Shown here piece after piece: positions 5,147 through 13,827 of a DNA stretch of 64,000 nt. This DNA is from a virus: positions 1 through 64,000 of the IMG/VR virus record IMGVR_UViG_3300044911_000835. One strand, written 5' to 3'. Both the position numbers and the translations under genes were made by a program. Under the pieces are notes generated by a model that did no database searches, was not told the DNA's origin, and saw nothing but the letters and a program-made list of their open reading frames with translations. Within the stretch, counting starts at the first letter, position 1. Every line of letters starts with the position of its first letter.

Positions 5147-5220
5147 GGGGCTTTAGTTTAATGGGAGAACCACTGGTTTGCAACCAGTTAATAACAGTTC
5201 GATTCTGTTAAGCTCCACCA
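5147..5220 (+). tRNA. tRNA-Ala(UGC)
   Basis: GGGGCTT/AAGCTCC with G3-U70, TT TGC AA loop, ACCA. Confidence 0.93.
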
Positions 5221-5222
5221 AA

Positions 5223-5362
5223 TAATATGTTGCGTAGAAAAGACTTACTTCCACTTCTAATGGGGTTGTCACAGGTTCGAGTCCTGTATAAGGGACGGAG
5301 TCTCTTATTAGCTCAGTTGGTAGAGCACCTAAAATTCGTTTTTTCGACTTTTTCTCATATTA
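5223..5362 (+). ncRNA. yrlA: YrlA-type Y RNA (Y1) with permuted tRNA domain
   Basis: T arm (5271-5287) precedes a closed acceptor-like hairpin and the D arm TAGCTCAGTTGGTAGAGCA (5309-5327); lies upstream of a TROVE gene. Confidence 0.85.
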
Positions 5363-5546: not shown

Positions 5547-7067
5547 ATGTCAAAATTCAATCAAGCAAACACTTTAGCAAAAGCTTTTTCTGCTAATGGT
5601 AACCTTCAGTATGTTAAGCCTGAAAAAGAACAACTATATGAATTAGTTGTTAATACTCTTTACGGGCGTGATACCTTTTACGAAACCACTGATGCTAAAG
5701 CACAGCGACTTTCAGCTATAGTAGCTAAGCTCGTTGCGTCTAATGAATTCAACTTCCTAGCAAACTTGGCTGTGCACGCAAGGCATGAAATGAATGTGCG
5801 AAATATGCCAGTCATGCTAGTTGACCAGACTGTTAAAGCTTTGAAAGCTCAAGGTAAGAACTTTGCTGGAACTCGTACCCTTGTAAGCCAAGTTGTTGGT
5901 CGCGTTGACCAAATCACCGACTTACTAGCTTTACTAGGCGACAAGGCTAAAATGCCTATGGCGCTAAAGCGCGGGTTGAGTGATGCTTTTAACAAGTTTT
6001 CAGAGTACCAATTTGCCAAGTACAATCGTGCTGGTAAAGTTACTTTGAAAGACGCAATGCGTATCGTACATCCAGTTCCTAAGGATGTGGATATGTCTAT
6101 CCTTTTTGACAAGATCATGAAGGGTAACTTATCGACCCCCGATACGTGGGAAGTAGCACTATCTCGTGATGGTAACACCAAAGAAGTTTGGGAAGGCCTA
6201 ATCGACCGCAAGGTACTAGGGTATCAAGCTACTTTAAAGAATTTGCGTAACATGCTGAATGCTGGAGTTAGTGCAGACCATCAGCGTCAGGTTGCTAAGT
6301 ACATTGTTGACTTCGCCGCTTCTAGCAAATCACTACCATTTGAGTTTCTAGCTTCTATGGAAGCTATTAAGAGTCTTGGTAGTCAGATTCTCAACAATGC
6401 ACTTATTGAGGCTATGGATGCGTCCGTAGTTAACGTACCTTCACTAGGAAACAAAGTTCTAGTTCTACTAGATACTTCTGGTTCTATGGGATTTATGGAA
6501 GGGCGTGCAGTTAAGAACGCAAGCTTCTTGTCAGCAGTATTAGCAAGTGCTAGTAAGAACTGTGAGAAATTCACACTTATTAGTTTCGCTTCTAATGCTA
6601 GACGGCATACTATTAATACCTCAGAACGTGTATTTTCTACCTATGAAAAGCTTGTAAAAGCCAGTGGTGGTGGAAGTACAGATTTTCTTGCTGGATTAAT
6701 AGAGGCTACTAAGGACGGTGTGGAATATGATACAGTCATTGTCCTAACAGATAATGAAATGGATAGCTTTAAGCACTCCTACAATGTAGGTAACTTCCAG
6801 AAGCAGGCCACTAGAGTTATCATTGACTGTTCTGCGTCCGAAACTAGCATTGCTAGCCCCTATGCTGGGTGGCATCATCTTGCAGGTTGGTCACCTAATA
6901 TGTTCCGGTATCTTGATGCAGTTCGTGAAGGTACTTCGATGGTTGAGATGTTAAGTCAACCATTTTCTAGTATGCTAATGAAACGCGAACTAGCGTCTAG
7001 GCGCTGGTCTAGTAAAGAAGTACCTACTTCCAACGTACCGAAAGCTGGACTAACTCATAGCGATTAA
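5547..7067 (+). CDS. rsr: Ro60/Rsr-like TROVE-domain RNA-binding protein with C-terminal vWA domain
   Basis: AR.EMNVR, F..FSEYQFAKYNR, LKD.MR..HP.P, PDTWEV.LS, L.YQA.LKNLRN; vWA MIDAS DTSGSM, GGST, LTDNE. Confidence 0.93.
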   Translation: MSKFNQANTLAKAFSANGNLQYVKPEKEQLYELVVNTLYGRDTFYETTDAKAQRLSAIVAKLVASNEFNFLANLAVHARHEMNVRNMPVMLVDQTVKALKAQGKNFAGTRTLVSQVVGRVDQITDLLALLGDKAKMPMALKRGLSDAFNKFSEYQFAKYNRAGKVTLKDAMRIVHPVPKDVDMSILFDKIMKGNLSTPDTWEVALSRDGNTKEVWEGLIDRKVLGYQATLKNLRNMLNAGVSADHQRQVAKYIVDFAASSKSLPFEFLASMEAIKSLGSQILNNALIEAMDASVVNVPSLGNKVLVLLDTSGSMGFMEGRAVKNASFLSAVLASASKNCEKFTLISFASNARRHTINTSERVFSTYEKLVKASGGGSTDFLAGLIEATKDGVEYDTVIVLTDNEMDSFKHSYNVGNFQKQATRVIIDCSASETSIASPYAGWHHLAGWSPNMFRYLDAVREGTSMVEMLSQPFSSMLMKRELASRRWSSKEVPTSNVPKAGLTHSD

Positions 7068-8183: not shown

Positions 8184-8258
8184 CTAGGCGTAGCTCAGCC
8201 AGGCCAGAGTCCTTGCTTTGGAAGCAAGTTGTCGTAGGTTCGAATCCTACCGCCTAGA
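8184..8258 (+). tRNA. tRNA-Pro(UGG), no encoded CCA
   Basis: CTTGC-TT TGG AA-GCAAG; acceptor extended by a 10-bp flanking stem. Confidence 0.88.
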
Positions 8259-8282
8259 CTTAGTATTTTGAAAGGAAATAAA

Positions 8283-11973: not shown

Positions 11974-12063
11974 GGAGCGTTTGATGCTATGGTGTGTGCA
12001 TCGGTGGACTGTAAATCCATCCCCTCTGGGTAAACATTCTTGGTTCAAATCCAAGACGCTCCA
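11974..12063 (+). tRNA. tRNA-Tyr(GUA), no encoded CCA
   Basis: GTGGA-CT GTA AA-TCCAT; acceptor extended by flanking stem. Confidence 0.87.
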
Positions 12064-12090
12064 CAGAGAATACTAAGAAAAGTAACTCTA

Positions 12091-12212
12091 CTATTTGTAA
12101 TAACCTCTATATTGGTCGGAGATCGAACTCTCCGGTGAAGGTGTGAGAGCCTTCAAATGGTCTTCTAAATAGAACCCAGCCAATTCCTCTCACTAGAGGT
12201 TATTACAAATAG
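12091..12212 (+). ncRNA. orphan multi-hairpin RNA cassette
   Basis: 19-bp perfect terminal stem; internal hairpins; GTGAGAG/CTCTCAC possible pseudoknot. Confidence 0.6.
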
Positions 12213-12295
12213 GGCGAGTGGTGGAATGGTATACACGCTGGTCTTAGAAACCAGTGCCGGAAGGATTGAGAGTTCGAGTCTCTCCTCGCCCACCA
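12212..12295 (+). tRNA. tRNA-Leu(UAG)
   Basis: CTGGT-CT TAG AA-ACCAG, ACCA. Confidence 0.93.
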
Positions 12296-12297
12296 AT

Positions 12298-12416
12298 TAT
12301 AAGTGCTTATATATTGAAGTGCACTTCGGATATATAATCTGAGCTAGGGAATCTTAGTACATGCGTGACTAGCCAACCAGACTTAGGGTGCTGGGTGAAG
12401 TAACTAAGAACTTATA
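12298..12416 (+). ncRNA. orphan stem-closed RNA cassette
   Basis: TATAAGTGCTTA/TAAGAACTTATA ends; internal hairpins. Confidence 0.45.
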
Positions 12417-12442
12417 TACCAATTGACTTAAAAGGAAATAAA

Positions 12443-12769
12443 ATGACTAAGTATCACCCTGATTCTTGGGTAATTCTAAAGATTACCAATGAAGGTGTTA
12501 CCTACTACAAAGTCTTAGCTGGTTGGTACGGTGGTTATACTAACGGAGATTCGTGGCAGATTAATTCCGGTATTACTAGTGTAGATAAAGTAGATGGTAT
12601 ATATGAGTTTTATGGATATTCTGGTTCTGTTTATTTCTGTAATGAGAAAACAGAACGATTAACAGGACTTACGGCTAGTATACTTGAATCATACCAGAAA
12701 GACATGGAAGGTATTGGTGCTTCTATGGAAGTTGTACCTGTTTCAGAAGTAATGTTTTATTTTCAGTAA
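12443..12769 (+). CDS. hypothetical phage protein
   Basis: PD.WV...YYKVLAGWYGGY..GDSWQINSGI...GYSGS.Y.C motif-rich ORF. Confidence 0.75.
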   Translation: MTKYHPDSWVILKITNEGVTYYKVLAGWYGGYTNGDSWQINSGITSVDKVDGIYEFYGYSGSVYFCNEKTERLTGLTASILESYQKDMEGIGASMEVVPVSEVMFYFQ

Positions 12770-12777
12770 AGATTAAA

Positions 12778-12852
12778 ACTCCGTTCGACTTCAGGTGAGG
12801 TCACCACCCTTTCAAGGTGGCTAGAGGGGATCGTTACCCCTACGGAGTACCA
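12778..12852 (+). tRNA. tRNA-Glu(UUC)
   Basis: CCACC-CT TTC AA-GGTGG, ACCA. Confidence 0.9.
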
Positions 12853-12860
12853 AATTCGTT

Positions 12861-13160
12861 ACTTAAGCCTAGTGCTTAAGTTGTAAGTCTAAATTGAAGA
12901 GGTTGAGACAGGGGTTCGATTCCCCTCACCTACAAAGACGATGTGGGTGTCTTGGGTTCGATCAGCGTTGGATATCTAGACTGAGAATCGGCAATGTAGA
13001 AGCCGTAATGTAAGTGCTCTGCAACAGCAGGTCAATTCCTTTGTTGTTAAAGCTTACGAAGAAACAAAGCATTTTAAATGCAAACGACGAAGTATACGCT
13101 ATCGCTGCCTAAGCTTTAGCTGAGGTTTTGAGACTGTTCCTTATTACCCAATACAGTCTC
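12861..13160 (+). ncRNA. ssrA: circularly permuted (two-piece type) tmRNA
   Basis: T arm and acceptor 3' strand (12910-12934) precede the acceptor 5' strand GTGGGTG (12943-12949, G3-U70); tag ORF 13080-13112 = ANDEVYAIAA*. Confidence 0.88.
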
Positions 13161-13267
13161 TATTAGTTAGTACTTTGTGACGAGTTAGTACACAATGAGT
13201 ACGTAGGCATACGTACTACTTGGATGTACTCGGTAGTCAGCGGCCGCAGCAAAGTATTAACTAATAG
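13160..13267 (+). ncRNA. orphan stem-closed RNA cassette
   Basis: CTATTAGTTAGTACTTTG/CAAAGTATTAACTAATAG; inner AGTACGT/ACGTACT. Confidence 0.55.
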
Positions 13268-13340
13268 TATACTAATGTAGCCCGCGACCTGTGCACAGGT
13301 GTAGGAACAGCGGTTGGCAGCTAAAACCAGTTAGTATACT
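13266..13340 (+). ncRNA. orphan stem-closed RNA cassette
   Basis: AGTATACTAA/TTAGTATACT; GC-rich inner stems. Confidence 0.45.
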
Positions 13341-13362
13341 TTCTAATTTTTACTAGGATAAC

Positions 13363-13827
13363 ATGAAAACACTTAATATAAAAGAAATAACAGAATACTT
13401 AGCTAATGAACCGTTAGAGTCTAATGTTTATATTGGTGTAGATTCTGAGCGTTATAAAGATAAAGGTAAGTGGTTTGCTGATTATACTGTTGCGGTAGTT
13501 ATTCACCGTAATGGTAACAATGGTTGTAAAGTATTCGGCGGAATTGATACTGCTCAAGATTTTGATAGCAAATCAAATAAACCTATGATGCGTATGATGA
13601 ATGAAGTTTATCGTGCATCAGAAACTTATCTAGCTCTAGCAGAACTTTTAGTAGATCGTCATGTTGAAATTCACTTAGATATTAATCCTAGCGAATTGCA
13701 TGGTTCTAACTGTGCTATGCAACAAGCTATTGGGTATATTAAAGGTGTATGTGGTCATACACCTAAACTTAAGCCGGAAGCATTTGCGGCGTCTTATGCT
13801 GCTGATAGATTGAAGGAATATATTTAA
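13363..13827 (+). CDS. YkuK (DUF458) family RNase H-like protein
   Basis: YIGVDS, RMMNEV, EIHLDIN, KPEAFAASYAAD. Confidence 0.88.
   Translation: MKTLNIKEITEYLANEPLESNVYIGVDSERYKDKGKWFADYTVAVVIHRNGNNGCKVFGGIDTAQDFDSKSNKPMMRMMNEVYRASETYLALAELLVDRHVEIHLDINPSELHGSNCAMQQAIGYIKGVCGHTPKLKPEAFAASYAADRLKEYI

Follow-up and report, generated by a model that had tools for sequence, protein, structure and literature searches.

A circularly permuted, betaproteobacterial-like tmRNA gene in the tRNA cluster of a T5-like freshwater phage

tmRNA is the RNA that frees stalled ribosomes. The phage DNA considered here raises the question of whether such an RNA is encoded in it in circularly permuted form and, if so, whether the phage uses it to rescue ribosomes, turns it against the trans-translation of its host, or does not use it at all. 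The window, i.e. the whole stretch of 64,000 nucleotides that was analysed, is the first part of a 77-kb IMG/VR record with an estimated completeness of 73%. The original prediction, made from the letters alone, had read positions 12861-13160 as a permuted tmRNA of a T5-like phage with a very short linker and a non-canonical acceptor end.

The permuted gene and its parts

A circularly permuted tmRNA gene spans window positions 12853-13171 on the plus strand, inside the tRNA cluster. More specifically, cmscan against Rfam 15 finds RF04321 (tmRNA_permuted) at 12880-13112 (+) over its full model (1-213), with 78 bits against a gathering score of 47 (E 3e-13 over the whole window) and with 29 of the 31 model pairs canonical, and this is the single non-tRNA family of Rfam 15 above threshold in the window. 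With permissive settings, RF01850 (beta_tmRNA) also matches over its full length within 12700-13450, at 12849-13169, and is the best of the tRNA/tmRNA clan (E 1e-19 for that 751-nt stretch), so that the alphaproteobacterial and cyanobacterial models score lower; at 66.2 bits it lies under the gathering score of 84, and the gene is therefore a divergent relative of the beta subtype and not a typical member. The reading as a permuted tmRNA is thus upheld by both models, and so is the resemblance to the betaproteobacterial lineage, in that RF01850 is the best subtype although below its cut-off. Every sequence element named in the original prediction was found in its place, and the match of the whole set is far beyond chance; the proposed extent was right in its core, but the conserved block is slightly longer, from 12853 to 13171. 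The programs suggested for checking the gene disagree, since cmscan gives RF04321 over its cut-off, whereas ARAGORN (version 1.2.41 included) does not call the gene at 12853-13171.

The order of the gene is permuted, with the T arm and the 3′ acceptor strand lying upstream of the 5′ acceptor strand, the D-loop analogue and the tag frame (all parts are on the plus strand). The tmRNA starts right behind the encoded CCA of a tRNA-Glu(UUC) called by ARAGORN (12778-12852). The 5′ leader of the acceptor piece follows (12853-12881), in which free folding predicts an 8-bp hairpin, ACUUAAGC/GCUUAAGU (12861-12868/12874-12881), and the AUUC at 12854-12857 could, as we infer, pair with GAAU at 12985-12988. 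The Rfam alignment and the pair list then place the 5′ strands of helix 2, followed by a conserved GAC, at 12882-12909, with the pairings AGUCUA/UAGACU (12886-12891/12977-12982) and GUUGA/UCAGC (12902-12906/12962-12966); 13 of the 15 model pairs of this helix are canonical in the RF04321 alignment. The T arm, AGGGG-UUCGAUU-CCCCU with 5 bp (12910-12926, from sequence and Rfam alignment), leads into the 3′ acceptor strand CACCUAC (12927-12933) and the discriminator A73 (12934). The intervening linker AAGACGAU, of 8 nt (12935-12942), is followed by the 5′ acceptor strand GUGGGUG (12943-12949), and the pair list gives an acceptor stem of 7 bp with G3.U70 and U2-A71. Beyond it lie the D-loop analogue UCUUGGGUUCGA (12950-12961 in the Rfam alignment), the part of a tmRNA that SmpB usually contacts, and the 3′ strands of helix 2 (12962-12988, from Rfam alignment and pair list).

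The pseudoknot-1 region begins with a hairpin placed by the Rfam models, CGGC-AAUGUAGAA-GCCG (12989-13005), and is followed by a lineage-specific insert of 59 nt (13008-13066) that is closed by GUAAG (13010-13014) and CUUAC (13053-13057). The resume-codon context (13067-13079), ending UUUUAAAU, fits the Rfam consensus UAAAUGC. The tag frame (13080-13112) runs from GCA to GCC and reads ANDEVYAIAA (13080-13109) before the stop UAA (13110-13112). In the post-tag pseudoknot region (13113-13160), placed by the RF01850 match and by folding, a stem GAGACUGU/ACAGUCUC (13130-13137/13153-13160) encloses the loop UCCUUAUUACCCAAU, the CCUU of which can pair with GAGG at 13122-13125, and the hairpin fits the RF01850 pattern (loop CCUUGuuACcaAA, with GAGG/GGGG before it). 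Both hairpins flanking the tag are present, and the loop-to-flank pairings GAGG/CCUU and AAUGU/GCAUU, drawn by eye, may turn them into pseudoknots. The conserved block ends with a 3′ tail (13161-13171), after which a terminator hairpin is absent; the RF01850 alignment shows a deletion where the beta model has its terminator hairpin, and a consensus scan for an own promoter gives nothing above shuffled sequences. When the two pieces are folded with the linker removed and CCA added, the fold constrained to the tmRNA pairs reaches −89.4 against −91.2 kcal/mol unconstrained, i.e. within 2 kcal/mol; the unconstrained fold (z = −2.1) recovers the T arm, the acceptor stem and the hairpins, but not helix 2.

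Compared with the betaproteobacterial two-piece tmRNA (RF01850; Sharkady and Williams 2004, as cited in PMC9004378 and PMC3978253), the gene shares the gene order, the tRNA-like domain, helix 2, the UAAAUGC resume context, a ten-residue ANDE....AA tag, the post-tag loop CCUU.UUACC.AA and a short intervening segment. It differs from that type in having U2-A71 and not G2-C71, no CCA, no promoter or terminator hairpin of its own, an outermost helix that fits the model poorly and the extra 59-nt insert, and in being AT-rich and phage-encoded. The cyanobacterial type (RF01851) is similar in its intervening segment of 4-7 nt and, among the matches listed, in its CCA that is not encoded, but it has a different tag family (ANNIVSFSR...) and a different layout of helix 2 and pseudoknots, and the gene in the window is nearer to the beta model.

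The phage, its close relative and the conservation of the gene

The DNA polymerase of the phage is about 45% identical to that of cultured Demerecviridae (Markadamsvirinae, Tequintavirus, Shenzhenvirus, Novosibvirus), the window holds a split NAD-dependent ligase, a primase, a DnaB-like helicase, SbcC and ribonucleotide reductase as replication genes, and the tail genes are those of a siphovirus (a major tail protein of the T5-type family, a tail terminator and a J-like central fibre). Because of this polymerase identity and these T5-type replication and tail genes, the label T5-like, as originally proposed, seems fair at a large distance, as a statement on gene content rather than on family rank; the island of 23 tRNA genes found by ARAGORN from 2.2 to 18.3 kb of the window speaks for it as well. 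In the five nearest cultured Demerecviridae neither the permuted nor the standard tmRNA model reaches its cut-off, and no permuted tmRNA was found in four contigs related through the neighbouring RNaseH-like gene (L003-L006, about 52% identity), which are incomplete. In the phage genome collection, BLAST of the region gave no match and megablast of 10 kb gave a tRNA match only. Four T5-like contigs (L028, L067, L068, L021) were dropped as relatives, since their pattern match is an ordinary tRNA-Ala.

The same tRNA island holds a sub-threshold match to YrlA, a Y RNA-like element, at 5238-5347 (35 bits against a cut-off of 69), with a Ro60/TROVE-vWA gene directly downstream of it (5547-7067). 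A weak second match to tmRNA_permuted at 5193-5280 consists of the 3′ half of a tRNA-Ala and the start of the YrlA-like element. Between the tmRNA and the RNaseH-like gene, positions 13173-13345 contain stem-closed elements, which are 39% identical in the relative described below and shorter there.

A close relative, L299, is a syntenic 5.2-kb metagenome contig whose main flanking blocks are 84.6-86.5% identical to the window and which carries the same tmRNA gene behind the same tRNA-Glu. Within the gene, the leader with its hairpin is identical in 29 of 29 positions, as are the T arm (17/17), the 3′ acceptor strand with A73 (8/8), the linker (8/8), the 5′ acceptor strand (7/7), the D-loop analogue (12/12), the first hairpin of pseudoknot 1 and the resume context (13/13), while helix 2 agrees in 27 of 28 positions of its 5′ strands and in 25 of 28 of its 3′ strands, the post-tag region in 47 of 48, and the tag with its stop at 79%. 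The insert 13008-13066 is merely 45% identical and the DNA beyond 13172 only 39%. Over 12853-13007 there are 4 differences in 155 positions (binomial p 3e-7 at 15% divergence): U12903C turns a U.G into a C-G pair and C12981U a G-C into a G.U pair, so that both helix-2 pairs are kept, and two further changes fall in the internal loop 12975-12976. The tag of the relative, ANDDMYVMAA, has the same frame and length as ANDEVYAIAA, with the AND start, the central Tyr and the AA end constant in both, and its base changes (7 of 30) are not significantly above background (p = 0.15). Because the structural parts are conserved, the helix changes keep their pairs and the tag stays in frame, the gene is, as judged from these comparisons, under strong purifying selection and maintained.

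Relatives further away point to the same structures. Around the conserved loop CCUUAUUACCCAAU of the post-tag hairpin they have more than 10 different, fully complementary stems, and the stem of the T arm covaries (AGGGG/CCCCU, GAGGG/CCCUC, GGCGG/CCGCC, UCGGG/CCCGA and others). These stems were tabulated by script; a MAFFT alignment of 16 relatives mis-registered stems and was left out of the pair counts.

Beta-like permuted tmRNAs that combine ANDxx(Y/F)AxAA tags with this post-tag pseudoknot occur on many AT-rich viral contigs, among them those of a related family of uncultured phages (loci L040, L008, L049, L116, L101, L102, L112, L062 and L359-L383). Most members of that family have the first hairpin CGGC-AAUGUAGAA-GCCG, and they resemble the window in resume context and tags, in the post-tag pseudoknot (in many) and in contig GC. 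They differ in their spacers, which are 26-141 nt long and closed by a stem against 8 nt in the window, in their CCA, encoded in 16 of 17 genes and not in the window, and in an acceptor stem with invariant G1-C72, G2-C71 and G3.U70 (17 genes), against U2-A71 in the window. The first hairpin is near-identical in most of 25 other viral contigs, and at the site of the insert relatives have another hairpin (GGAUUGGGG-NNNN-CCCGGUC) or nothing. The tmRNA of the window gives the impression of a family member that has become compacted. A gene for a SleB-type endolysin lies nearby in all eight contigs screened (L008, L101, L037, L112, L043, L102, L094, L040). The spacers of L040, L008, L101 and L049 start after the CCA with (A/G)AAG(U/C)(A/G)U... 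and end with the complement, then UGAU, so that the spacer is a stem-closed cassette; the AAG...GAU linker of the window may, speculatively, be a remnant of such a lost cassette.

Several further observations concern the diversity of these genes. Thirteen phage permuted tmRNAs (L359, L362-L364, L366, L369, L371, L372, L376, L379, L380, L382 and L383) form a sub-family that has the T loop GGCAGUG and not the universal UUCGAnU, with the acceptor stem GGGCCUG/CAGGUCC (CGGGUCC in L359); all of them except L379 are missed by ARAGORN. In the permuted tmRNAs of L047 and L110 the intervening segments start with ATG and appear to contain small ORFs. A low-depth DNA contig from the same lake (run X1, record 5) has the first hairpin in common with the window (12984-13007) and differs by 1 mismatch in 60 nt from its resume and tag region (13067-13126), its tag being nearer to that of the window than the tag of L299 is; its D-loop analogue is canonical, and a hairpin of 27 nt takes the place of the 59-nt insert of the window. 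From this patchwork, co-occurring tmRNAs (of other phages or of the host) seem to swap modules.

The exact T-arm/acceptor pattern was found in no other viral contig and the exact tag pattern in none of the metagenome contigs. A tag scan of bacterial genomes matched nothing but bacteria with ANDExYAIAA tags, mainly Gammaproteobacteria (e.g. Rheinheimera, Alishewanella, Photorhabdus); in the three tag-sharing genomes checked, the permuted model gives sub-threshold matches only, so that neither lineage nor host can be read from the tag. No match to RF01850 over its cut-off was found in a sample of 151 genomes of the class Gammaproteobacteria, with no more than 10 candidates scored per genome, a depth at which this negative carries no information.

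The acceptor end and the linker

G2-C71 contributes to recognition by AlaRS in E. coli, and the original prediction was accurate in noting that G3.U70 and A73 are kept, that pair 2-71 is U-A and that no CCA is encoded. After A73 the next three bases are AAG; 21 of the 23 phage tRNAs encode their CCA, and the tmRNA does not. The sole exceptions among the tRNAs are tRNA-Pro and tRNA-Tyr (8184-8259 and 11974-12064). U2-A71 is restricted to the window and L299 among about 140 permuted tmRNAs examined or listed, a set made up of 28 viral contigs, 97 metagenome junctions among the matches listed and the 17 genes of the related phage family; the scan patterns would have let U2-A71 through. All the permuted tmRNAs used for comparison (about 140, among the matches listed) have G1-C72, G2-C71 and G3.U70, with positions 4-7 covarying freely.

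The linker appears less unusual when set against genes of the same layout. A scan of metagenome contigs for a T arm, a 3′ acceptor strand, 0-12 nt and a 5′ acceptor strand gave at least 120 matches, and 98 of the 120 listed have a tmRNA-type D-loop analogue. Among these 98 listed, the linker measures 7 nt in 65, 5 nt in 16, 6 nt in 13, 4 nt in 3 and 8 nt in one, which is L299. In 68 of the 98 listed short-linker genes the acceptor strand ends precisely in an encoded CCA, which indicates that even loops as tight as these get cut in the cell; the other 30 listed junctions with linkers of 4-8 nt have no CCA. GC-rich, bacterial-looking genes among the matches listed (tags ANDERFALAA, ANDEQFAIAA etc.) have a linker of CCA plus 3-4 nt, and those with cyanobacterial tags (ANNIVAFSR...) a linker of 4-7 nt without CCA. 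The 8-nt linker, which had been regarded as exceptional, is thus within the norm, 4-8 nt being usual in beta- and cyanobacterial-type genes (98 among the matches listed). The acceptor end is non-canonical in its U2-A71 pair, rare among the approximately 140 listed; a missing CCA is not special among short-linker genes (30 of the 98 listed). What is unusual in the gene is the U2-A71 pair, the absence of an encoded CCA in a phage of which most tRNAs, and a related family of which most tmRNAs, encode theirs, the lack of an own promoter and terminator, and the 59-nt insert.

The linker supplies a U at position −1 of the predicted RNase P site, and U at −1 is a favourable context for RNase P. The tandem tRNAs of the island lie 6-8 nt apart. 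Since tRNA-Pro and tRNA-Tyr have no CCA, the phage already requires the host route of tRNA processing, and these tRNAs must undergo the same host CCA addition as would the tmRNA. In permuted tRNA genes the acceptor-loop spacers measure 1-74 nt, and opening by RNase P and tRNase Z with CCA addition afterwards has been proposed (PMC3978253).

Function and its alternatives

From sequence and comparison, the gene probably encodes a functional two-piece tmRNA of betaproteobacterial type, which would rescue ribosomes via host factors. It would be co-transcribed with the neighbouring tRNAs, and the acceptor piece would gain its 5′ end when tRNA-Glu is released. RNase P would cut before G12943, the 8-nt trailer would be trimmed to A12934, and the CCA-adding enzyme of the host would supply the CCA, while the acceptor stem and helix 2 would hold the two pieces together. 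The RNA could then be charged by host AlaRS through G3.U70 and A73 and be delivered by host SmpB and EF-Tu to ribosomes stalled on broken mRNAs, where translation would resume at GCA 13080, add ANDEVYAIAA and stop at UAA 13110, so that the ribosome would be freed and the peptide marked for host proteases. The statement that the window contains no smpB is borne out and extends to the rest of the 77-kb record (73% complete), in which no gene for a CCA-adding enzyme was found either. These absences count against a working rescue RNA, as do the U2-A71 pair in place of G2-C71, the CCA that is not encoded and the RF01850 score under its cut-off. Contigs from RNA libraries cross the uncut linker (X5 at 12077-13338, X17 at 12258-13180) and may stem from either precursor RNA or DNA, assembled contigs of this kind showing neither ends, strand nor processing. 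For the same reason no weight was given to the gaps in X18 or to the contigs that end near 12874 and 13180.

It may be asked whether the gene belongs to the phage at all, and whether it is still used. tmRNA genes are common integration sites, and some contigs of the viral collection carry GC-rich, bacterial-looking permuted tmRNAs (e.g. L079), as would be expected if a host gene stood at a prophage edge or in a chimeric assembly. The gene, however, lies mid-record, between phage tRNAs and phage genes, its AT-rich composition matches the phage, the backbone is Demerecviridae-like and the matched Demerecviridae are all free phage genomes. The exact stretch is intact in 16 lake-water DNA runs (and is present in freshwater RNA libraries of two studies). 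The arrangement is moreover repeated in the independent relative L299, and this synteny refutes a host gene or chimera for practical purposes, leaving it scarcely credible. That a tmRNA was captured from the host or another phage and is now a decaying relic would agree with the RF01850 score below the curated cut-off, the miss by ARAGORN, the lineage-specific insert and the CCA that is not encoded. Such decay is nevertheless very improbable, given structural parts that mostly agree with L299 at 96-100%, compared with about 85% for the flanking genes and 39% just downstream, helix substitutions that preserve pairs, and a tag frame that is intact in both phages.

A decoy or inhibitor of host trans-translation deserves more attention, namely an RNA that stays uncut or poorly charged and soaks up SmpB or stalled ribosomes. 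A precedent exists in mycobacteriophage DS6A, whose RNA, consisting of the tRNA-like domain only, is reported to inhibit tmRNA in E. coli (PMC4131195, PMC11915505); it likewise derives from tmRNA, is carried by a phage and could disturb trans-translation in the host, but it has no tag reading frame, whereas the window encodes a complete, conserved mRNA-like domain. Three deviations (U2-A71, no CCA, a tight 8-nt loop) cluster at the acceptor end, in this lineage only (the window and L299) among about 140 listed relatives, and the uncut linker is present in the RNA-library contigs. On the other side, L299 retains the complete mRNA-like half in highly conserved form, with resume context, in-frame tag ending in AA, stop and post-tag pseudoknot, which speaks against a pure SmpB sponge, since such an RNA could do without this half; G3.U70 and A73 are both still present, short linkers without CCA are normal in cyanobacterial-type two-piece genes, and the U at −1 favours cleavage. 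On balance a decoy of the DS6A kind is unlikely. We would also put little weight on a deliberately weakened acceptor end, by which the RNA might serve the phage as a dominant brake on trans-translation in the host, or else rescue ribosomes slowly and in a way tuned to the phage.

For a functional rescue RNA, the benefit to the phage is likely to be that ribosomes are kept available while host and phage mRNAs get cut during infection, and this fits the company of the 23 tRNAs and the Ro60/Y-RNA-like module. The presence of a permuted tmRNA in a phage, which might have passed for a novelty, has been published before: 53 unique two-piece tmRNAs were found in 18,146 phage genomes, mostly of aquatic phages, with the OM43 phage Melnitz and pelagimyophages among the carriers (PMC9004378), and the tmRNA database holds 79 phage tmRNAs (PMC11915505). 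The published two-piece tmRNAs are likewise permuted, occur in lytic aquatic phages and rely on host SmpB, with a proposed role in keeping the hijacked translation machinery running. They are mostly of alphaproteobacterial type, from marine T4-like myophages, with a promoter of their own and sometimes a glutamine riboswitch, whereas the gene described here is of beta type and forms part of a tRNA operon in a T5-like siphophage from fresh water.

The known range of phage two-piece tmRNAs is hereby extended to a freshwater T5-like lineage, with a tmRNA fully integrated in a tRNA operon, and the general picture of phage tmRNAs is unchanged. A blind spot of annotation is exposed as well, since ARAGORN misses such permuted phage genes, including that of L299 and many members of the related family. 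The rare U2-A71 pair, finally, offers a natural test of the weight of the 2-71 pair in the charging of tmRNA.
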